A stretch of DNA of 64,000 bases. Origin: Bacillota bacterium. GTDB lineage: Bacteria; Bacillota; Clostridia; Christensenellales; UMGS416. Positions 4,784-29,867 of the stretch are shown here, piece after piece. Below the pieces are notes generated by a model that saw only the letters and a program-made list of their open reading frames with translations, had not been told where the DNA came from and did no database searches. The stretch is taken from positions 14,184 to 78,183 of the forward strand of contig JAEYPH010000062.1 of NCBI GenBank assembly GCA_023410875.1, read 5' to 3'. Positions within the stretch are counted from its first letter, which is position 1, and each line of letters begins with the position of its first letter. A program made the position numbers and the translations under genes.

Positions 4784-6106
4784 TCAGGGTTCCACGCGGT
4801 TCATGTCCCGGGGGAACAGCGCCGCCCAGCGCACGTTGTCCAGCCCCAGCAGTTGCATCGTCAGGCGCTCCAGGCCCAGGCCCAGGCCGCCGTGGGGCGG
4901 CGCGCCGTATTTGTGGGTCATCAGGTATCCTTCGAAATCCGCCGGGTCCAGGCCCATGCGGCGCATCTTGGCCACCTGCATGTCATAATCATGGATGCGC
5001 TGGCCGCCGGAGGTGATCTCCAGCCCGCGGAACAGCAGGTCGAAGCTCAGCGTGACCTCGGGGTTCTCCGGGTCTTCCATGACGTAGAAGGGCCGCGCCG
5101 ACGTGGGGTAGTGGGTCACGAACAGGAACGGGCAGCCCAGCTCCTCCTCGGCGTATTGGCACAGCAGCACTTCTTCCTGGGGCTCTATGTCGTTGTAAGA
5201 CGTGATCTTGCGGCCGTACTTGCTCTCCAGAACCGCCTTGGCTTCGTGGAAGGGGATGGACGGGATGCCATCCTCGCCGATGCGGGGCATCTTGACGTCC
5301 AGCACGCGCAGCTCCTCGGCATACTCGCGCTGCAGCAGGTCCAGCGTGTAGCGCAGCAGGCCGGTCTCCATGTTCATCACGTCGAACATGCCGTCGATGA
5401 AGCCCATCTCAAAGTCCATGCTCGTGTATTCGTTGAGATGGCGGCTGGTGTTGTGGCGCTCGGCGCGGAACACCGGGCCGATCTCGAACACGCGCTCGAA
5501 CACCGGCACCATGGCCTGCTTGTAGAACTGGGGGCTTTGGGCCAGAAACACCTTGCGGTCGAAGTATTGCAGTTTGAAGAGGTTGCTGCCGCCCTCTGCG
5601 CCGGCGCCCACGATCTTGGGTGAATGGATCTCGGTGAAATCCTGCGCCGTCAGATATTCGCGGAAGGCGCGGCTGAGCGCCTCCTGCACCTTGAAGGCCG
5701 CGCGCATGGCGGGGTTGCGCAGCGCAGCCGGGCGGTATTCCAGCGAGGCCTCTATGGAAATGTGGCTCTTGCGTTTGTTGATCGTAACAGGCAGCGGCTC
5801 GGCGAAGCGCGAGAGCACTTCCACGGAGCTTAAGCTGATCTCAAAGCCATAGGCGGCGCGCCCGTCGGCGCGCACGATACCCTGGGCGCGGATGCCGTAG
5901 CCTTCGCGCAGGTCCAGGCATTGGGCGGTCAGCGCCTCGTCGGCCACGCATTGCAGCACATAGCGCCCGGTGCGCAGCATGACGAAGGCGAAGGAGCCCA
6001 TATCGCGGATTTTATGCACAATTCCGCATATTGTTACGGGGCCATTGGCGTTTTTCAGGCCTTCCAAAGTGAGTTTCGGGGGGACCAAACCGGAGACGAC
6101 GGCCAT
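4784..6106 (-). CDS. aspS: aspartyl-tRNA synthetase, archaeal/type-2 form (probably non-discriminating)
   Basis: Class II aaRS motifs FRAERHNTSRHLNEYTSMDFE and GGLGLGLERL. About 440 aa. I moved the start to ATG 6106 (GGAGG 5 nt upstream) from the ORF-track start at 6157, which has no RBS. Operon with gatCAB supports a non-discriminating role (inference). Confidence 0.85.
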   Translation of the reverse strand: MAVVSGLVPPKLTLEGLKNANGPVTICGIVHKIRDMGSFAFVMLRTGRYVLQCVADEALTAQCLDLREGYGIRAQGIVRADGRAAYGFEISLSSVEVLSRFAEPLPVTINKRKSHISIEASLEYRPAALRNPAMRAAFKVQEALSRAFREYLTAQDFTEIHSPKIVGAGAEGGSNLFKLQYFDRKVFLAQSPQFYKQAMVPVFERVFEIGPVFRAERHNTSRHLNEYTSMDFEMGFIDGMFDVMNMETGLLRYTLDLLQREYAEELRVLDVKMPRIGEDGIPSIPFHEAKAVLESKYGRKITSYNDIEPQEEVLLCQYAEEELGCPFLFVTHYPTSARPFYVMEDPENPEVTLSFDLLFRGLEITSGGQRIHDYDMQVAKMRRMGLDPADFEGYLMTHKYGAPPHGGLGLGLERLTMQLLGLDNVRWAALFPRDMNRVEP

Positions 6107-6188
6107 AAAAACCTCCAAACCCGCGGATTTGCCGATCTCCGCGGGAAAATCTTTCATACACGCTTCATGATGGATGATAATTTATACA

Positions 6189-6218
6189 ATTATACTCCTT
6201 TTTGGCAGGGTCGTGCAA
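6189..6218 (-). promoter_or_regulatory. putative sigma-A promoter of the aspS-gatCAB operon
   Basis: Minus strand reads TTGCAC, an 18-nt spacer, then TATAAT, about 75 nt upstream of the aspS start. Confidence 0.35.
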
Positions 6219-6265
6219 GTAGACTTGCAAGGACGTCCATGGATCGATGCATCAAATTTTGTGGT

Positions 6266-6293
6266 TGCTTTTTGACTGTCCTTTTGCTATAAT
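6266..6293 (+). promoter_or_regulatory. putative promoter of tRNA-Thr
   Basis: TTGCTT, a 16-nt spacer, then TGcTATAAT (extended -10), ending 27 nt before the tRNA 5' end. Confidence 0.4.
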
Positions 6294-6319
6294 ACCTTTC
6301 GCACCGGACAAACAATTTT

Positions 6320-6395
<76 letters not shown>

Positions 6396-6437
6396 GAAAG
6401 CAAAAGCCCCACCGCAAGGTGGGGTTTTTGCTTTCTC
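6396..6437. terminator. rho-independent terminator after tRNA-Thr (possibly bidirectional)
   Basis: AGAAAGCAAAAGCCCCACC-GCAA-GGTGGGGTTTTTGCTTTCT. A long stem with a U-run on the plus strand and an A-run on the other side, facing the GntR gene end at 6467. Confidence 0.6.
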
Positions 6438-6466
6438 TTATTACCGCTTCATGAGAATCTGACCGC

Positions 6467-6844
6467 CTACTCCTGGGCATCGTAATGTCGGTTGATCGCC
6501 CGTACAACTTCCTCACGCGATATGCCATGCTCCTTGTAGTACGCAACGTCCTTGGCTATCTTTGCATCCAGCAGCACATGGAGCTTGTTGCGCAGATCGC
6601 GGGCGGTTACGTCAGCGACAAAACAGCCCCGGCCCACCATGGAATGGAGCAAGCCATCGCGTTCCAGCTCCTCCCACGCCTTCTTGATCGTAATCACACT
6701 GACGCGCAGCTGCTTGGCGACGGTGCGTATCGGCGGCAGCATCGTGCCGGGCGGCAGTTTGCCGCTCATGATCTGCGCGCTGAGCTGCTCGTAAATCTGC
6801 TGGTAGATCGGCATATCTGACGCGCCGGAGATGATGATGTTCAT
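6467..6844 (-). CDS. GntR family transcriptional regulator (YtrA subfamily)
   Basis: 125 aa. Winged-HTH PPIRTVAKQLRVSVITIKKAWEELERDGLLHSMVGRGCFV with a short C-terminal tail, typical of YtrA-type regulators encoded with ABC transporters. Confidence 0.85.
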   Translation of the reverse strand: MNIIISGASDMPIYQQIYEQLSAQIMSGKLPPGTMLPPIRTVAKQLRVSVITIKKAWEELERDGLLHSMVGRGCFVADVTARDLRNKLHVLLDAKIAKDVAYYKEHGISREEVVRAINRHYDAQE

Positions 6845-23213: not shown

Positions 23214-24077
23214 ATGAATCGTATCAAGCGCATATGGGTGCAGGCCCTGGCCGCTCTGGCCGCCAACGCCAATCTGGGCGGATTCGCAGATGGCACGATC
23301 TATCGGGGAAAAAGCAAGTCCGTGTGCCTGCCGGGCTTCAACTGCTACAGCTGCCCCGGCGCGCTGGCCGCATGCCCCATCGGTGCGCTGCAGGCGGTGC
23401 TGGGCAGCGCCCGTTATCAGTTCACGTGGTATGTGCTGGGCACGCTGCTGCTGTTCGGCCTGATCGCCGGGCGGTGGATCTGCGGCTGGCTGTGCCCCTT
23501 CGGGCTGTTCCAGGACCTGCTGCACCGCATCCCCACGCCCAAGTGGAAGGTGCCGCGCCGCCTGCGCTGGCTGCGGTATACCAAATATGTGCTGCTGGCC
23601 GTGCCGGTGGTGCTGCTGCCGATGTTCTTCGTGGGCCCCACGGGCATCGGGGAGCCGTGGTTCTGCAAGGTCATCTGCCCCAACGGCACGATCTTCGGCG
23701 CACTGCCGCTGATGGCGGTCAGCGACGCTCTGCGCCAATCGGTGGGGTTGCTGTTCTTCTGGAAGCTGGGTCTGGCGCTGGCCATCGTGGCGCTGTGCGT
23801 GGTGCTGTACCGCTTCTTCTGCCGTTTTCTGTGCCCGCTGGGGGCCATCTACGGCCTTTTCAACCGCATCGCCTTTGTGCACATGTCCGTGGACCGCCAC
23901 CGCTGTACCAACTGCCGGGCCTGCGCCCGCGCCTGCAAGATGGATGTCGAGCCGCACAAAACGCCTAACTCGCCGGAGTGCATCCGCTGCGGTGACTGCC
24001 GTAAGGCGTGCCCCCATGGGGCGATATCCATGGGAGTGACTGCCGGGGAGAAGAAGAAAGAAGCGCCGACACAATAA
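23214..24077 (+). CDS. membrane-bound 4Fe-4S binding protein (NapH/MauN-like polyferredoxin)
   Basis: 287 aa. N-terminal CYSCPGALAACP, several TM segments, and C-terminal CTNCRACARAC / CIRCGDCRKACP ferredoxin motifs. Confidence 0.8.
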   Translation: MNRIKRIWVQALAALAANANLGGFADGTIYRGKSKSVCLPGFNCYSCPGALAACPIGALQAVLGSARYQFTWYVLGTLLLFGLIAGRWICGWLCPFGLFQDLLHRIPTPKWKVPRRLRWLRYTKYVLLAVPVVLLPMFFVGPTGIGEPWFCKVICPNGTIFGALPLMAVSDALRQSVGLLFFWKLGLALAIVALCVVLYRFFCRFLCPLGAIYGLFNRIAFVHMSVDRHRCTNCRACARACKMDVEPHKTPNSPECIRCGDCRKACPHGAISMGVTAGEKKKEAPTQ

Positions 24078-24529
24078 TGTTTATGGAGAACAACATGATC
24101 AAGCATAAGGTATGGGTGCTTATTCTGGTTATTCTCGCGTTTCTGCTAGGAGTATCGTTATGCTTGGTTGGAATTCTAGTTGTTGTTCATCCCACGAACA
24201 GAGTGATTGAAACGTGGAAACAACCGGATGACATTGCGTACAACGATTTTGGACCATACTATTTATCCGTTGTGGAAAGCAGCCTGGATATAAGCCATTT
24301 GCCGTTTGCGGTGGAGAGACAATACTATTTATACGTAGGAGCCGACAGCGGCAAGCCAGTGTATGGACACGTTATTGACTTCTCTTTTCATCCTGACACA
24401 TCACATCTCTATGATTTAGAAGAGTTTATCAAGATGTCAAATGTCACTTGGTCCAGCGAAGGTGTTACATTCGAAGAGGCCTCAGGGCACAAGCTTTATA
24501 TCCCTAGAAGCATGCTTAACGCAAGATGA
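24077..24529 (+). CDS. hypothetical membrane-anchored protein (AT-rich orphan gene)
   Basis: About 150 aa with an N-terminal TM (VWVLILVILAFLLGVSLCLVGILVVV). Markedly lower GC than its neighbours. Alternative starts at 24083 and 24095. Confidence 0.45.
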   Translation: MFMENNMIKHKVWVLILVILAFLLGVSLCLVGILVVVHPTNRVIETWKQPDDIAYNDFGPYYLSVVESSLDISHLPFAVERQYYLYVGADSGKPVYGHVIDFSFHPDTSHLYDLEEFIKMSNVTWSSEGVTFEEASGHKLYIPRSMLNAR

Positions 24530-24566
24530 GCCAGTAGTGAAGGGCTCGATCCTATAATTTGTGAAT

Positions 24567-24732
24567 AAAAGGGGCTGTCACACTAGCCACATATTGTCAT
24601 ACTCATACAAAAGATTGGGCCGAAGGTTTCCAAAGGGCGATCGGAAAGCCCTTTGGTCGCGCCTGGAGGCGCGAAATTTTCCTCGCATTGTATAAAGTAT
24701 ATACTATGTGCTTAGTGCGACAGGCCCTTTTG
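24567..24732 (+). repeat. structured intergenic element, copy A (long closing stem plus conserved two-hairpin core)
   Basis: The core at 24619-24663 is identical to 27477-27521. Local hairpins are CCAAAGGGC/GCCCTTTGG and TCGCGCC/GGCGCGA. The outer arms at 24567-24612 and 24686-24732 are mutually complementary (read by eye). Confidence 0.6.
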
Positions 24733-24742
24733 TAAGTGACGC

Positions 24743-25690
24743 TTATTTCAGCCACCTCTCCAGCAACTCCACACCCCGTTGCTCCGCCTCATATGCCCTG
24801 AGAATGTTGCCGTGTAGCGCGTCCAGCAGCTCAGGAGTGGGGAAGGCCGGGTTCAGCCGGACCAGATAGAGCGCAGCCCGCAGTTCGCCCGCGACCTGCG
24901 CGTATGCCGCGGCCGCGGGGGTCAGAGTTGCGTCGCCGGCGGCCACGCCCCGCAGCCAGATGGCCGCGCCCCGGCGCAGCGACGCATAGGTGGCAATGTA
25001 ATACAACGACGGGAAGCCTGCTTGGTCGACATTGCGCACGAGGTTGGCCCAGTGGGGGTAGGCGGCCAGGCCGTTTTCATAGTTGGGCCGGTCCTCCCAC
25101 TCGCGGCCCCGGGCGTGGTCAACGGCGACTTGTATCGTGCGCCGCGCCAGCTCCGCGGGGGTTGCACCCGAGGGCTTGCCGGGCACCGTGACCGACAAGA
25201 TCGGGATTTCCCGCTTTCCCAATTGCGCGTAGGGCAGCGTCTGGCGCTCGTTCCGTATGCTCAGCGTGTCGTAGGCCTGGGCGTCGTCGTCATACCCAAT
25301 GACGACACCCCACTCGGGGATGCCGATGTCCCACACGACCGGCGCGACGCCGCTGTCTATGGCCTCCACGATGGCGCGGTGGGCCTGCTCGCAGCGCTCG
25401 GCCTCCTGCGCTTCCTCGTGCCACAGGCGGGAGATGTACGTGCAGTCATAGCCGTTCAGCTCCACGCCGGTCTTCAGCAGGTTGAAATCGAAGATGCTCG
25501 TGGCGCTGGGGCAGTTGGCCTTGGTGTCCACCCAGATGCGAAAGGCGAAGGCGCTGGCGCCGGTGACCGATTCCCGGCTTACGGCGTATCCCGCGTACGT
25601 CAGAGACGAGGCCAGCATGTGGGTGAAGGAGAAGGGAATCTCGCCGGGTTCAGTGGGCAGCATCGTGAAGTGTTGCAACTGGTTTTTCAT
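24743..25690 (-). CDS. hypothetical protein (possibly BtrH-N/peptidase-C39-like fold, weak)
   Basis: 315 aa from MKNQLQHF (AAAGGAGG RBS). No firm motif recognised. Its start lies inside the 3' end of the AraC gene (41-nt overlap). Confidence 0.5.
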   Translation of the reverse strand: MKNQLQHFTMLPTEPGEIPFSFTHMLASSLTYAGYAVSRESVTGASAFAFRIWVDTKANCPSATSIFDFNLLKTGVELNGYDCTYISRLWHEEAQEAERCEQAHRAIVEAIDSGVAPVVWDIGIPEWGVVIGYDDDAQAYDTLSIRNERQTLPYAQLGKREIPILSVTVPGKPSGATPAELARRTIQVAVDHARGREWEDRPNYENGLAAYPHWANLVRNVDQAGFPSLYYIATYASLRRGAAIWLRGVAAGDATLTPAAAAYAQVAGELRAALYLVRLNPAFPTPELLDALHGNILRAYEAEQRGVELLERWLK

Positions 25691-26552
25691 GGTCGGCCTC
25701 CTTTTGCTTGATCGGCATATAGATTCTCTCAATGAATGTACGGCTCTTCTCGCAGTAGGTCTCAAAGCTGGGCCTTGCTGTGTCCATGCGGTAGGTTGAG
25801 TGGGGCAGCCAATGGCCGATGGCGTGGTCCCACGTGCGGTGGATGGTCTCCACGAAGGTCAGCGCGTCGGCGGGCGGTGTCGCGAAGACGGCATAGAGCC
25901 CCGGCGGGATGGGAACCAGCTCGCTGCCAGGTGGACCGGCCCGGTCGCTCCACAGGCCGCAGACGTAGCGCCAGGAGCCGTCGGCCGCCCTGGGCAGGCT
26001 GCATCCCACGTCGTCATACCACCCATCGTTAGGGCAGCCGGGCAGCGTGAGCGCCAGCCCTTGGGCATGATAGCGGTTCCAGAACTGGGGCACCAGGCCA
26101 TGCCTGGCATCGGTTGGCACGGCCAGCCCATAGCCGCACACCGTGCCGCCGGGGAAGGCGGCAACTTCCGGGTCAGCGATGGGCATAGGCTCGCTGTGCA
26201 GCCGGAAGGGCTCGGTCACATGCAGGCTGATGCCGCTGCCCCGGTAGCGCCCGGGCGTGATGCCGTGCTCCGCGGCGAAGGCCCGCAGGAAGGTTTCCGT
26301 GGACTCGAACCCCCACCGGAATGCAATGTCCACCAGCGGCTCCGTGCCGGCGGCGATGTCCGCCCCGGCGCGGGCCAGCCGCCGCTTGCGTACATAGTCC
26401 ATGGGCGCCAGGCCTGTCACGCTGTGGAAGATGCGGCAGAAGTGGTAGGGGGAGTAGCCCGCCGCCGCGGCGCAGCGCTCCAGCGTGAGCTCTTGCTGCA
26501 GGTGCGCCTCGATGAAGTCCAGCGCCCGCTGGATGTGCTCCTGATACCGCAT
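25650..26552 (-). CDS. AraC-family regulator with GyrI-like effector-binding domain
   Basis: N-terminal ..LTLERCAAAAGYSPYHFCRIFHSVTGLAPMDYVRKRRL...IAFRWGFESTETFLRAFAAEHGITPGRYR (double HTH), followed by a GyrI-like C-terminal half. Start at MRYQEH (GGAAGGAGAG RBS). Confidence 0.85.
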   Translation of the reverse strand: MRYQEHIQRALDFIEAHLQQELTLERCAAAAGYSPYHFCRIFHSVTGLAPMDYVRKRRLARAGADIAAGTEPLVDIAFRWGFESTETFLRAFAAEHGITPGRYRGSGISLHVTEPFRLHSEPMPIADPEVAAFPGGTVCGYGLAVPTDARHGLVPQFWNRYHAQGLALTLPGCPNDGWYDDVGCSLPRAADGSWRYVCGLWSDRAGPPGSELVPIPPGLYAVFATPPADALTFVETIHRTWDHAIGHWLPHSTYRMDTARPSFETYCEKSRTFIERIYMPIKQKEADHEKPVATLHDAAH

Positions 26553-26695
26553 GCGCCGCTCTCCTTCCCACAGCGGCAGTATATCATGGCTATGTGGGGA
26601 TATGTTTGACGATTCTTGCGCATTGTGCGTGCCTGCTGCAGATTGTATAATGGAGCAAACGGACGGCGCGAGCCTCCAGATCAATGCGAGGAACC

Positions 26696-27241
26696 ATGGC
26701 AGACCCGATCATCGTGACGCCCTATGACGAGCGCTGGCCCGCGGAATTCCAGAAGGTGGGCCAGAGCATCCGTGCGGTGCTGGGGGAGCTAGCGCTGCGC
26801 ATCGATCACATTGGCTCCACGGCCATCCCCGGCCTGGCGGCCAAGCCCGTCATCGATGTGCAGGTGTCGCTGAAGTCCTTTGACCAGATCGACGTCATCG
26901 CGCTGGGCATGCGCTCCATCGGCTTCGCCTTCCGGCCGGACAACCCCGACAAGACGCAGCGATACTTCCGTGAGCTGCCCGGCAACCGGCGCACCCATAT
27001 CCATATGCGCCGCTCCGGCAGCTTTCAGGAGGCATTCTCGCTGCTGTTCCGCGACTATCTGCGCCAGCACCCCGAAGACGCCCGCGCCTATGAGGATAAC
27101 AAATACGAACTCTCGCTGATCCACAAGGACAACCGCCTGAACTATGTGGACGGCAAGGGGCCGCTGATCTGGCAGATCATCATGCGCGCCAACCGCTGGA
27201 GCCAGTCCACGGGCTGGCACCCAGGCCCCAGCGACGCTTAG
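26696..27241 (+). CDS. GrpB family protein
   Basis: IIVTPYDERWPAEFQKVGQSIRAVLGELALRIDHIGSTAIPGLAAKPVIDVQV is the GrpB (UPF0157) signature. Confidence 0.85.
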   Translation: MADPIIVTPYDERWPAEFQKVGQSIRAVLGELALRIDHIGSTAIPGLAAKPVIDVQVSLKSFDQIDVIALGMRSIGFAFRPDNPDKTQRYFRELPGNRRTHIHMRRSGSFQEAFSLLFRDYLRQHPEDARAYEDNKYELSLIHKDNRLNYVDGKGPLIWQIIMRANRWSQSTGWHPGPSDA

Positions 27242-27258
27242 AAGAGGAGTATATAAAG

Positions 27259-27420
27259 ATGGAAAAGAAGCAAGAGCAACCGTTGCTTTATGACCCGGCG
27301 CAGTGCCCGTGCTCCAACGCCAAGTGCGAGCGCAACCGCAACTGCGAGGCGTGCCAAAGTTTCCACCACGCCAGGGGCGGCCTTACCCGGTGCGAGCGCC
27401 GGGCGAAGAAGGAAAACTAA
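27259..27420 (+). CDS. 53-aa cysteine-rich mini-protein, hypothetical
   Basis: Below the ORF-track cutoff; translated by hand. MEKKQEQPLLYDPAQCPCSNAKCERNRNCEACQSFHHARGGLTRCERRAKKEN. GAAGAGGAG RBS. Six Cys plus HH, which suggests metal binding. Confidence 0.45.
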   Translation: MEKKQEQPLLYDPAQCPCSNAKCERNRNCEACQSFHHARGGLTRCERRAKKEN

Positions 27421-27424
27421 GAGG

Positions 27425-27594
27425 AAAGGGCTGTCGTGTTCGTCACATAACTGCATAATCATTCATAGTAATTGGTGCCGAAGGTTTCCAAAGGGCGATC
27501 GGAAAGCCCTTTGGTCGCGCCAACAGGCGCGAAATCCCTTCCCATTGAATGAATTATGCACTTTATGCGCTTAACGCGGCAGCCCCTTGGTTTT
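27425..27594 (+). repeat. structured intergenic element, copy B
   Basis: Same 45-nt core (27477-27521) followed by GCGCGAAAT. The arms GGGCTGTCGTG..CACATAACTGCATAATCATTCA and TGAATGAATTATGCACTTTATGCG..CGCGGCAGCCC differ from copy A but pair with each other. Confidence 0.6.
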
Positions 27595-27602
27595 GTTATA
27601 AG

Positions 27603-29867
27603 TTATTTAGTGCCTTCCACCACATAATCCGGTGCGTCCTTGGCCGGCAGGAAGGTTGATATCACTCCATCTCCTCCCTTGTACTTGATGAACACAACAT
27701 AGCCGCCTTCGCTGGCGAGGAACAGGCTGCGCGAGCGGGACAGCACCTCCTGCTGCTGCGCCTTGTCGGTCAGGAAGAGCTTCAGGCCATCGCGCTCCTT
27801 ATATCCTTCAATATCCTGCTGCGCCCCGAACCCGCTGTAGAACATCGGGAAGGAGTGCAGCGCATTGTAGTCGTAGGAGTGGCTTATCTTGCTGTAATCC
27901 AGCAGGCTGACATACTCAATCTCTGCGGTGTTCTGTATCGCGTCCATCCAACCGTTTTCCCGCAGGTAGGCCAGCGTTTCGGTGAACTGCTCCGTGACGT
28001 ATACAAATCCGCCCTCGTAGCCGGCGTCTTCCAACGTGCTGCCCTGCGCTGTGAACGCCAGGATGCACGTCTCCGGCTTTGCCGGCAGATAACGGTCCTC
28101 CGGCGTCTGGGCGGCCAGGTCGTTGGCGATGCAGTTCAGCAGATCTTTACGCCGCCGCTCCACAAGTTGAAGTCCCTCGATGGCACTAAAAAACGGCGCG
28201 CACAGATAAACGTTGCCAGCGCGATAGGGCGCGGTGTCCAAGCCAGGCTGTTCGTCCTCGTCCGACAGCAGATAGTCGCGATAGGCCTTTTTCACCGCCG
28301 CAGTGTTGTCCAGCGCCATCATGGCCCTGATCAGGTCCGGCGTCAGCGCTTGGTAGGCGCGGGTCACGGTGCTGCCGTTTGCCATCGTGTAGGTGATCTG
28401 GGTGGCAGCGCCATACGCCCGGCCGCCGTCCACTTTCATGGTCCGGTTCAGCAGGCCCACCTGTGTCAGCGCGCGGTGAACCTCAATCGCCGCGGCGATG
28501 TCTGCTTTGTCCACCAACGTAATGTCATTTTGAAAACTCATGTCCGGCACGAGCCCGCCCTGACCGCCACCGCCATTGTTGGGCATGTAGAAGTCCAGCC
28601 CGTTGTAGGTCATCTTTATGCTCTTCACGGCGTCGGCAGCCGGCACGAATCCGCTAAAGCCCAACCCGCCGGAAAGGAACCCCCCCGCCAGCGCCAGCAT
28701 GGCGGCCAGGCCTGCGCCCAAGGGCAGCAGGCCCTTCCACACCCGGCGGCGCAGCAGCCGCAGCGGGAGCGCCGCCGCCAGCATCACGCCGCCGGCTGAC
28801 GCCGCCGCGATGGACAGCATGGCGCCGGTGGAAAGCTTCATCGTGGTATACAGCGGCAGCATGTACACAAGCCCGAAGGCGAAGAAGCCGACGGTCAGCA
28901 TGCTGGCGTAGGCGGTGGCCTTGCCCGCGCCCAGCACGCCGGTGTGCTCCACACCGGTCTTCAGGAAGACCCGGTGGGCGAACCACAGCAGCGCGCCCGT
29001 GGCCGCCAGCCAACCCGGTATCAGTGCCCAGCGGATGGGCAGCGGGGGCAGGCTGGCCAGGTATTCCTGATAGCCGGTGACGAGTTTCGACTCGTGACTG
29101 AAGCGGCTGATATATTGGCTCATGAAGATCAGCGGATTCCAGTCCGACAGTTCGCGAACCAACGAGGTGTTCCAGCTGTAGTAGAGCGTATCTGAAAGGC
29201 CAAAGCCGTTGCCGGGCAGCAGGTGCAGCAGCAGCCCGTTCAGGCTCATCCCAAGCAGGGTGGGCAGCGCCATCAGGATCAACGAATAGGCGATGCCTTC
29301 TGCCAGCGTCTTGCAGGCGCAGCACACGAGCACGACTACGCTGTATAGTGCCAGTATCTGCAGGCCCATGCCCAGCGTAAAGAAGGCGATCCGCGCCAGC
29401 GCCAGCCCCACATCGGCGAACAGCACCAGGTTGACCGCCAGCGAAGCCAGCATTGTGACAACCAGTGGCAGCAGTGCGCCTGCGGCTCCCGCCGCGTAGC
29501 GCGAGCAGAACAGCTCATGGCGCGAAAGCCCCATGCCGAACCACGCGTTGGCGGCGCTGCGGTTGAAAAGGAAGCGGAAGGCCATCACGCCCTGCAGCAA
29601 TGCGGACAGCAGCGCCAGCGCCGGGAAAAACAGGCTCAGCGTCGAGCCGTCGAACAAGCAATACTTTATGGAGTTGTATGGGGCTTCGCCCTGCCCGTTG
29701 AGCGAGGTTATTATCACGATGATGGGCAGCACGATCACCGCCAGAAAGAGGATGGTGCACAGTATCGTCAGCAGCATGCCTTCGCCGATGGCCTGCCAGA
29801 AGGAGTGGGCCCACGGGCGGTACCGCCGCACCCTGCTATTCGCCGTCAAAGAGACCTGAGAAGTCAT
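27603..29867 (-). CDS. large polytopic membrane protein with about 330-aa C-terminal soluble domain (putative permease partner of the adjacent ABC ATPase)
   Basis: 754 aa. About 12 hydrophobic segments in the first 420 aa, then a non-hydrophobic domain with no motif I recognise. Overlaps the ATPase stop by 32 nt (start uncertain). Confidence 0.6.
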   Translation of the reverse strand: MTSQVSLTANSRVRRYRPWAHSFWQAIGEGMLLTILCTILFLAVIVLPIIVIITSLNGQGEAPYNSIKYCLFDGSTLSLFFPALALLSALLQGVMAFRFLFNRSAANAWFGMGLSRHELFCSRYAAGAAGALLPLVVTMLASLAVNLVLFADVGLALARIAFFTLGMGLQILALYSVVVLVCCACKTLAEGIAYSLILMALPTLLGMSLNGLLLHLLPGNGFGLSDTLYYSWNTSLVRELSDWNPLIFMSQYISRFSHESKLVTGYQEYLASLPPLPIRWALIPGWLAATGALLWFAHRVFLKTGVEHTGVLGAGKATAYASMLTVGFFAFGLVYMLPLYTTMKLSTGAMLSIAAASAGGVMLAAALPLRLLRRRVWKGLLPLGAGLAAMLALAGGFLSGGLGFSGFVPAADAVKSIKMTYNGLDFYMPNNGGGGQGGLVPDMSFQNDITLVDKADIAAAIEVHRALTQVGLLNRTMKVDGGRAYGAATQITYTMANGSTVTRAYQALTPDLIRAMMALDNTAAVKKAYRDYLLSDEDEQPGLDTAPYRAGNVYLCAPFFSAIEGLQLVERRRKDLLNCIANDLAAQTPEDRYLPAKPETCILAFTAQGSTLEDAGYEGGFVYVTEQFTETLAYLRENGWMDAIQNTAEIEYVSLLDYSKISHSYDYNALHSFPMFYSGFGAQQDIEGYKERDGLKLFLTDKAQQQEVLSRSRSLFLASEGGYVVFIKYKGGDGVISTFLPAKDAPDYVVEGTK

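Follow-up and report, generated by a model that had tools for sequence, protein, structure and literature searches.

A dispersed palindromic repeat of gut Clostridia with a conserved two-hairpin apex, a covarying pseudoknot and a proposed third strand

Two long hairpins between convergent genes

The 64-kb window, by which we mean the whole 64,000-nt stretch of contig JAEYPH010000062.1 that was analysed, contains two copies of a palindromic element, copy A and copy B, which both lie on the + strand and each between convergent genes. Copy A is flanked by the genes at 24077–24529 (+) and 24743–25690 (−), and copy B by those at 27259–27420 (+) and 27603–29867 (−). The two copies belong to a large, previously undescribed and unannotated family of dispersed intergenic palindromic repeats, of which the functional unit is an apex of ~60 nt rather than the arms. 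The coordinates of the copies and of their parts are summarized in Table 1.

A preliminary description of this DNA had reported an identical core, an identical segment behind it and a second hairpin (H2) with a kept stem and a changed loop, and sequence comparison bears out all three. Positions 27477–27521 are identical to 24619–24663 at 45 of 45 nt, the segment GGCGCGAAAT follows directly 3´ of this 45-nt core in both copies, and the H2 stem is the same in both, whereas its loop changes from TGGA in copy A to AACA in copy B. Taken as a whole, the conserved core is 93% identical between the copies, with four differences that all fall within the H2 loop, and in the arms identity drops to 65% (111 aligned columns). 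Within the window, the 45-nt core has two matches only at up to three mismatches, and none of 100 shuffles gave any match. The covariance model R1, applied to the window with the filters off, detects copies B and A only (scores in Table 1), and the next match reaches 15 bits.

Each copy folds as one long, imperfect hairpin whose apex carries two hairpins. The free energy under RNA parameters is −74.9 kcal/mol (z = −7.9) for copy B and −73.2 kcal/mol (z = −7.3) for copy A. The arms are divergent yet complementary, as had been proposed. The reverse strands of both copies fold equally well (−76.3 and −75.3 with RNA parameters), and so does DNA when DNA parameters are used (−44.9, z = −7.5 for the + strand; −42.8, z = −6.5 for the − strand); the folding check that had been suggested supports the arm pairing. 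Among the 36 base pairs in register that are common to the two folds, three are changed on both sides and two are changed on one side to G.U, and the arm compensation between copies A and B is therefore real but modest.

A perfect TATAAT hexamer is located at 24553–24558 (+), 13 nt 5´ of the first base of copy A; it has no matching −35 element and no counterpart before copy B. The gene directly 5´ of copy B encodes a cysteine-rich open reading frame (ORF) of 53 amino acids (CPC...C...C..C...C), for which the existing annotation of the called gene lists no Pfam family. In a relative with 87% identity, a 53-aa gene is likewise called at this position (L110:4544-4705), a likeness by position and length only. 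L-numbers here and below designate the loci or contigs that carry the repeat or were compared for it.

Table 1. Features of the two window copies and of the copies with an insertion in the H1 loop.
Feature	Position	Strand	Basis or remark
Copy B, complete long-arm palindromic element GGGCTGTCG...CGGCAGCCCC	27428..27586	+	bounds from 12-copy alignment; fold z −7.9 (RNA), −7.5 (DNA)
Copy B, 5´ arm, lineage-specific, pairs with 27536-27586	27428..27476	+	fold; 65% identical to copy A arm
Copy B, conserved apex module (core)	27477..27535	+	92.4 bits to R1; same as copy A except H2 loop
Copy B, pseudoknot 5´ strand CCG, partner CGG 27500-27502 (H1 loop)	27478..27480	+	8/32 covariation
Copy B, linker GGTTT, proposed third strand; mirror of AAAGG 27490-27494 (H1 purine strand)	27483..27487	+	covariation with H1
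Copy B, hairpin H1 CCAAAGGGC-GATCGGAAA-GCCCTTTGG	27488..27514	+	covarying pairs
Copy B, hairpin H2 TCGCGCC-AACA-GGCGCGA	27515..27532	+	all 7 pairs covary family-wide
Copy B, 3´ arm	27536..27586	+	fold, alignment
Copy A, complete long-arm element GGGGCTGTCAC...GCGACAGGCCC	24571..24727	+	fold, alignment
Copy A, conserved apex module	24619..24677	+	87.0 bits to R1
Copy A, pseudoknot	24620-24622 with 24642-24644	+	
Copy A, hairpin H1	24630-24656	+	
Copy A, hairpin H2	24657-24674	+	
Copies with H1-loop insertion	L003:4102-4239, L030:5947-6079, L086:1188-1327, L099:3697-3836		inserts vary from genome to genome, with one common to L086 and L099

A repeat family defined by its apex

The search for further copies that had been suggested was run on genomes and metagenomes with scans seeded on fixed words, so that some positions are invariant by construction and the counts are lower bounds. 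Among the matches listed, the 21-mer of the first hairpin (H1), AAGGGCGATCGGAAAGCCCTT, was found in species-representative genomes of at least 30 species, where more than 108 stretches contain it, and the core in more than 120 gut-metagenome contigs. The DNA of the window belongs to a gut-metagenome scaffold in ENA. The carriers listed are almost all metagenome-assembled genomes (MAGs) of Clostridia from animal and human guts, which include Christensenellales, Ca. Egerieenecus and some Oscillospiraceae; their labels mostly read just Clostridia or Clostridiales, and few name Christensenellales or Oscillospiraceae. We extracted 124 complete copies, and a covariance model of H1 and H2 finds 207 copies, on both strands, in 721 kb of carrier loci. 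Several copies per contig are common, and contig ends often coincide with the repeat, which indicates many near-identical copies. Copies A and B had been treated as a self-contained element; the copies are real and their ~60-nt apex is common to lineages, but the pair is part of one long-arm sub-family within a dispersed family.

The core also occurs in nine IMG/VR contigs, and in eight unannotated faecal 'Bacteriophage sp.' records the core alone matches. IMG/VR copies are intergenic at L116:3817 (the same element as L118:6870), L117:3486, L119:13038 and L114:537. Some of these carrier contigs have ORFs that, by eye and without a database check, we take to resemble terminase, portal and tail proteins, the last of very large size. 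The repeat is thus present in phages of the carrier hosts, which could spread it. The sole non-Firmicutes match among the genome records listed is L046 (CAVEOA010000026.1, labelled Alloprevotella sp.), which may reflect a mis-binned contig or horizontal transfer.

No Rfam 15 family fits the repeat at gathering thresholds over the whole window, in which the sole match is a tRNA gene at 6320–6392 (+) with 69.8 bits. At E values up to 10 over 24400–27800, Rfam gives chance-level scores of 13–20 bits only, such as Xoo1 against H2. The core has no match in the plasmid collection; words of the core sequence retrieve unrelated primers only from the full-text literature, and keyword searching retrieves nothing specific to the repeat. 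The preliminary description had named the inverted-repeat end of a known mobile element as a competing identity, and neither a known insertion sequence (IS) nor a transposase or an Rfam family was found that would support it.

The conserved part spans only ~60 nt, and the flanks vary by lineage. Its consensus reads YCCGAAGG-NNU-(H1: CCAAAGGGC GAUCGGAAA GCCCUUUGG)-(H2: UCGCGCC NNNN GGCGCGA)-AAY. As a single strand, the apex appears to consist of an outer stem formed by the variable arms, a pseudoknot of 3 bp that joins CCG to the CGG in the loop of H1, a linker of 7 nt, H1 and H2. The hairpins are supported by their substitutions, for which the counts given here are copies rather than events, as the copies are phylogenetically non-independent. 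Double-sided changes occur family-wide at all seven pairs of H2 (pair 139-175, for example, is CG in 51 and GC in 46 copies). In H1, alignment pairs 22–26 covary, with A-U replaced by G-C at two pairs in 31–37 of 119 copies and 98–99% of the cells paired. Over H1, H2 and the pseudoknot together, double changes are found in 13 of 19 pairs and 94.8% of the cells are paired, compared with 84.1% in shuffles and 26–55% in slid controls. The earlier suggestion that the apex is under selection, rather than the product of a recent duplication, is thus upheld by conservation in hundreds of copies from dozens of genomes and by the covarying stems.

The pseudoknot joins the CCG located 5´ of the linker to the CGG in the loop of H1, and was recognised from variants that the covariance model found. 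Positions 8 and 32 combine as C:G in 184 and G:C in 102 of 290 pooled copies, and the remainder are U.G (one), G/G (two) and C/A (one). As an independent test, a metagenome scan that fixed only G8 yielded 99 distinct copies, of which 96 have C32, three have G32 and none has A or T. Position 29, which lies between the pseudoknot strands, varies freely among U, C and G, which rules out a kissing loop through a self-complementary CGAUCG.

The linker between the pseudoknot and H1 covaries with the hairpin as well. Copies in which H1 has 9, 8 or 7 bp have 3, 2 or 1 nt of linker after GAAGG, respectively. Linker position 16 is U with an A-U at H1 pair 21 (189 copies) and G with a G-C (101 copies), with no exception among the 290; position 15 combines with pair 22 as U.A-U in 177 copies, A.A-U in 54 and G.G-C in 49, with 10 exceptions. 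Across 22 distinct linker/H1 types, the purine-motif rule is kept by 55 of 66 triples, while shuffles keep 38 ± 3.4 and none of 5000 reaches 55. The segment GGNNU-CC-ANNGG forms a mirror repeat that no Watson-Crick alternative explains; neither pairing of the linker GGUUU with the AAACC after H2 nor a CCGAAGG mini-hairpin follows the observed covariation. We therefore propose that the linker behaves as a third strand in a triplex, a reading drawn from covariation for which the definitions of triple motifs were taken from PMC7583470. The 5´ strand of H1 is its purine strand, to which the linker is antiparallel, and on this geometry the triples would be of the reverse-Hoogsteen purine motif. The pseudoknot and this triplex-type covariation, which are the most informative features of the repeat and lean to DNA, had escaped the preliminary description.

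Most loops of H2 read C(GCA)G, C(GUA)G, C(GAA)G or GUGA. Loops of the C(GNA)G type form exceptionally stable DNA mini-hairpins. In four copies (Table 1), 60–70 nt are inserted in place of just the GAU with which the H1 loop begins, and the core is otherwise intact. An alternative hairpin, CGGGG-NNN-GGGGC-ARA-GCCCC, stands in place of H2 at L009:577-652, L024, L039, L072, L082, L084:5391-5463, L091 and L095; this mirror repeat plus hairpin is a second candidate for an intrastrand G.G-C triplex.

Arms, sub-families and probable instability of the repeat

The arms are lineage-specific and cannot be aligned across sub-families, so that no consensus fold of the long arms was obtained across them. 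The long-arm sub-family comprises the window copies and those of L110, L009, L024, L039, L072, L082, L091, L059 and L098. Its ends are sharp, with similarity extending from GGGGCTGTC to GACAGCCCC in 12 aligned copies from different genomes, and the copies are usually preceded by an A-run and followed by a T-run (AAAAGGGGCTGTC...GACAGCCCCTTTT). No short target-site duplication (TSD) is present at the ends of the aligned copies.

The A-run, the T-run and the location of both window copies between convergent genes would also be expected of a mere pair of bidirectional intrinsic terminators; together with chance or a recent local duplication, we consider this explanation highly improbable. Hundreds of copies with the same core in at least 30 species are decisive against it. 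In addition, the window core is identical while the arms are not, and bases of the loops and the junction are conserved that a terminator does not need. A T-tract after the arms is not general across the family, which excludes a general terminator; in the consensus scan, only H2 of copy A is terminator-like. A conserved −35/−10 promoter was not found at the copies.

A second sub-family, found in Ca. Egerieenecus and relatives, is 222–229 bp long and has terminal inverted repeats (TIRs) of 17 bp, TCAGACTGYTGAAAAAG / CTTTGTCAACNGTCTGA. At least 8 of its 14 copies are flanked by a direct repeat of 18–37 bp, which is a complete, locus-specific GC-rich hairpin, and it looks as if insertion of this form had duplicated a whole terminator-like hairpin. 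Such flanking hairpins, with their loops in the same orientation, are seen at L065:1-480 and also in L008, L041, L064, L093, L094 and L102; in L102 the order is hairpin-element-hairpin-element-hairpin. In genome SIG372 (L030:185-1056; L029, L036, L075, L095), convergent opposite-strand doublets of two core types recur with a period of ~280 bp, in which CCAAAGGGC with the linker UUU alternates with CCAGGGGGC with the linker GGU. Other loci contain tandem arrays of the repeat. In L064, two copies and their flanks at 234-1244 and 5539-6549 are exact mirror images at both ends of a 6.8-kb contig, either through a large inverted duplication or through an assembly artefact caused by the repeat.

Comparison with relatives of the window genome reveals local rearrangement. 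Contig L110 is syntenic across the region, with 87% amino-acid identity to the window proteins. At the site of copy B, the L110 element is inverted as a whole, arms and core, relative to the flanking genes; the model matches the other strand, and the arm beside the 53-aa gene is the reverse complement of the window 3´ arm over CGCATAAAGTGCATA. The L110 core differs from that of copy B at one non-loop base, and its arms are more diverged than the core, the 5´ arm more than the 3´ arm in an alignment by eye. The core is kept at this orthologous site although the arms have diverged to 65–80% identity. At the site of copy A, L110 has no element and a different gene content, and a relative with 45% identity has no element beside the homologous gene.

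These observations bear on the possibility that the repeat is a host-maintained, non-mobile DNA site of the BoxC/PIT type (an intrastrand triplex plus cruciform) whose copies are ancient and vertically inherited. Such a site might be bound by a nucleoid, topoisomerase or repair protein, pause replication or transcription, or act as a recombination hotspot. The orthologous core that is kept between diverged arms suits this explanation, and so does the resemblance to TM-ECO/BoxC, which are likewise intergenic and strand-neutral, with extreme identity, opposite-strand A+B pairs and local instability (PMC4666352). In contrast, the sharp-ended sub-families with their TIRs, flanking direct repeats and tandem arrays, the copies in phage genomes, the presence or absence of the element between close relatives and the many near-identical copies that end contigs argue against it, and we regard it as improbable. 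The lineage-specific TIR sub-families, the presence, absence or inversion of the element between relatives and the phage copies suggest instead that the repeat is unstable or mobile.

A protein partner was sought in the neighbourhood. Among 651 predicted neighbour proteins, all-against-all clustering recovers as recurrent families only ABC ATPases and MATE-type and similar transporters. A tblastn search of ~0.9 Mb of loci with IS200 TnpA, IS608 TnpA and the E. coli RAYT gives no match below E = 0.4. From these two results, any trans-acting factor is hypothetical.

Placement, strand and relation to known systems

To determine the placement, 203 copies were positioned with a codon-model gene caller that was checked against the gene calls of L001; the calls are approximate. 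Convergent spacers hold 55 copies, co-directional spacers 36 in the sense and 35 in the antisense orientation, and divergent spacers six; the corresponding numbers for the 98 solitary copies are 26, 24, 17 and six. Sense and antisense do not differ significantly, either overall (p = 1.0) or among solitary copies (p = 0.35). Of the spacers in the same loci, 12% are convergent, 13% divergent and 75% co-directional, compared with 42% of the copies in convergent spacers (3.4-fold enriched) and 4.5% in divergent ones (2.8-fold depleted). The shared orientation of copies A and B and their position between convergent gene ends, both noted previously, thus stand, and the preference for convergent spacers is family-wide. 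With the majority gene strand taken as a proxy for the direction of replication, the orientation is also balanced (55 versus 53). Arm mismatches in 191 copies comprise 174 G.U and 255 A.C, without an excess of G.U on the sense strand. Possible G-U pairs of a plus-strand RNA had previously been noted in the arms, with the strand call described as weak; the complementary arms do not speak for an RNA, since sense-strand G.U is not in excess, both strands fold equally and the orientation is random. The two options that had been offered, an RNA or a DNA structure to which a protein binds, are still the right ones.

The main alternative to a DNA-level structure is a structured RNA: the core would form an H-type pseudoknot that contains a triple helix, act in transcripts and be spread on mobile repeats. 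It might serve, for example, as a nuclease-resistant stabiliser in the 5´ or 3´ untranslated region, a processing site, a self-cleaving ribozyme, a protein decoy or a small RNA, and only the copies transcribed in sense would work. A covarying pseudoknot, coupling of the linker to the helix and an optional inserted domain are typical of functional RNAs, and three U.G wobbles occur at the pseudoknot. Some 30 copies, phage contigs included, are sense-oriented 20–100 nt upstream of a ribosome-binding site and an ATG start codon, and 74% of copies follow a gene of the same orientation, with which they could be co-transcribed. The latter figure, however, equals the neutral expectation from placement (69%). 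The balanced orientation, the orthologous copy that is inverted with its core nevertheless conserved, the arms without a G.U excess, the lack of any Rfam match even at E = 10 and the lack of a conserved promoter all speak against an RNA, and the functionally unrelated downstream genes make a riboswitch unlikely. The triples would be of the antiparallel purine motif, whereas folded RNAs commonly use parallel pyrimidine-motif triples, and there is conflicting evidence as to whether RNA can provide the third strand of a purine-motif triplex (PMC7583470); according to Holder et al., RNA cannot form triplexes of this motif (PMC4666352). Overall, we regard a structured RNA as possible but doubtful.

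From the neutral orientation, the arms without an RNA-strand signature and the antiparallel purine-motif geometry, we infer that the fold acts in DNA. The points on orientation, arms, loops and triplex chemistry together favour a DNA-level structure, and none of them is decisive. We thus read the repeat, with moderate confidence, as a DNA-level, probably mobile, structured intergenic repeat whose closest analogues are BoxC/PIT, repetitive extragenic palindromic (REP) elements and miniature inverted-repeat transposable elements (MITEs). The apex fold would act in DNA that is single-stranded through extrusion or exposure during replication. Most likely, the apex would be a recognition or structure module through which a putative trans-acting enzyme spreads or maintains the repeat, much as folded single-stranded DNA (ssDNA) serves as the substrate of HUH/Y1 transposases, which cut and join ssDNA, or in the manner of the REP and BoxC/PIT repeats. 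At the window sites, the 157–159-bp hairpin between its A-run and T-run would probably also form a putative two-way transcription barrier between the convergent genes.

Several observations weigh against a mobile DNA structure. The covariation counts ignore phylogeny, and the G8:C32 state could represent a few large clades; purifying selection on the orthologous core rests on one pair, copy B and L110. Neither a classical short TSD nor an empty-site pair was found for the long-arm form, and a terminator role, given that no T-tract is found family-wide, would be confined to this form and is putative there. Within the 8-kb loci no transposase, recombinase or other protein family recurs, and the negative tblastn result points the same way. 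The comparison of G.U with A.C in the core stems decides for neither strand, and the U.G wobbles at the pseudoknot and the sense copies upstream of start codons count here as well. Pseudoknots with major-groove triples are, moreover, classic RNA folds.

A bolder version is that an ssDNA pseudoknot with a purine-motif triple helix is the recognition module of a new non-autonomous mobile class, which inserts at extruded terminator hairpins and duplicates them whole, or, if the fold is RNA, that it is the first widespread natural RNA pseudoknot with antiparallel purine-motif triples; we consider this rather unlikely. REP, BoxC/PIT and MITE repeats are common, and their active structures have seldom been defined. 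Here, natural variation alone defines a fold of ~60 nt across uncultured gut Clostridia, which provides a model that can be tested by experiment. If the structure is formed in DNA, it would be the best comparative evidence yet for a selected intrastrand purine-motif DNA triplex in bacteria and would point to an enzyme that reads the triplex; if it is formed in RNA, it would represent a new and abundant class of RNA whose triplex chemistry is unusual. In practice, the repeat breaks metagenome assemblies, with many copies at contig ends, and marks unstable intergenic sites, and it merits masking or annotation in MAGs.

A number of known elements were compared with the repeat and rejected. Integron attC sites do not fit, as the ends GGGGCTGTC / GACAGCCCC lack R''/R' (RYYYAAC / GTTRRRY), the centre is conserved rather than the ends, and Rfam gives no match. 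A riboswitch or other cis-regulatory 5´ leader is not supported by the neutral orientation and the functionally unrelated downstream genes. The likeness of H2 (GTCGCGCC-CGCA-GGCGCGAAAC) to a type I-C CRISPR repeat was taken as a coincidence, as the 'spacers' of the arrays are themselves repeated; cas genes were not sought. Retrons and hammerhead, HDV-like and pistol ribozymes have no Rfam match, and their topology was judged wrong by inspection; Y RNA, 6S RNA and twister likewise have no Rfam match.

REP/BIME/REPIN sequences are short structured extragenic repeats with tens to hundreds of copies, are recognised as folded ssDNA by RAYT (a Y1 HUH protein) and have secondary roles in transcription termination and mRNA stability. 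The present repeat resembles them in its extragenic location, high copy number, preference for 3´ ends and convergent spacers, occurrence in both orientations and clustered inverted doublets (for example, L030). In contrast to REP, in which a conserved 5´ GTAG stands beside an imperfect palindrome of 20–40 nt, the feet of H1, of H2 and of the arms show no GTAG in the 114 copies aligned, conservation falls on the apex of one long hairpin rather than on two arms, and a pseudoknot and a proposed triplex are added. Moreover, the core is kept across many species-level genomes instead of being species-specific. A RAYT did not turn up in the ~0.9 Mb of loci sampled.

The conserved termini of MITEs (Correia/NEMIS, RUP, ERIC, bcr1) match those of a parent IS, and some MITEs show compensatory changes. 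The repeat shares with them a non-coding length of 150–250 bp, TIRs, long hairpins, an intergenic location and a presence that varies between relatives. However, its termini vary by lineage while its centre is invariant, no parent IS was found within the loci and plasmids searched, and a short fixed-length TSD is lacking; the Egerieenecus form duplicates a whole local hairpin instead.

The topology of the apex corresponds to that of H-type RNA pseudoknots such as telomerase RNA, the SAM-II and preQ1-II riboswitches and the ENE (PMC7583470), with stem 1, a loop 1 in the major groove of stem 2 that covaries with stem 2, and an A-rich loop 3. In those RNAs, a purine-rich 3´ strand takes part in triples of the parallel pyrimidine motif (U.A-U, C+.G-C) (PMC7583470), whereas in the repeat the 5´ strand is the purine strand, loop 1 follows the antiparallel purine motif, and the element is orientation-neutral and multi-copy.

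The BoxC/PIT/TM-ECO repeats of E. coli, Synechocystis and H. influenzae (Hoyne et al. 2000; Holder et al. 2015, PMC4666352) have the most in common with the repeat. Both are multi-copy and strictly intergenic, with no strand bias, extreme identity between copies and an obscure function (PMC4666352). Both have a mirror-repeat purine segment that would allow antiparallel triples rich in G.G-C within one strand, which here is deduced from covariation, and both show frequent opposite-strand pairs and local rearrangement; the SIG372 doublets resemble the A+B pairs of E. coli. The core CCGAAGGTTTCCAAAGGGCGATCGGAAAGCCCTTTGG, in contrast, does not fit the consensus CCCTCNCCC-N3-6-GGGNGAGGG-N3-GGGNGAGGG (PMC4666352), and the strand order is reversed (third strand, purine, pyrimidine) with about five proposed triples compared with nine. 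The repeat further adds a pseudoknot of 3 bp, another hairpin and long arms that vary, and resides in gut Clostridia and their phages. BoxC/PIT/TM-ECO is thus the nearest behavioural match to the repeat described here, which is nevertheless not a member of the BoxC family.

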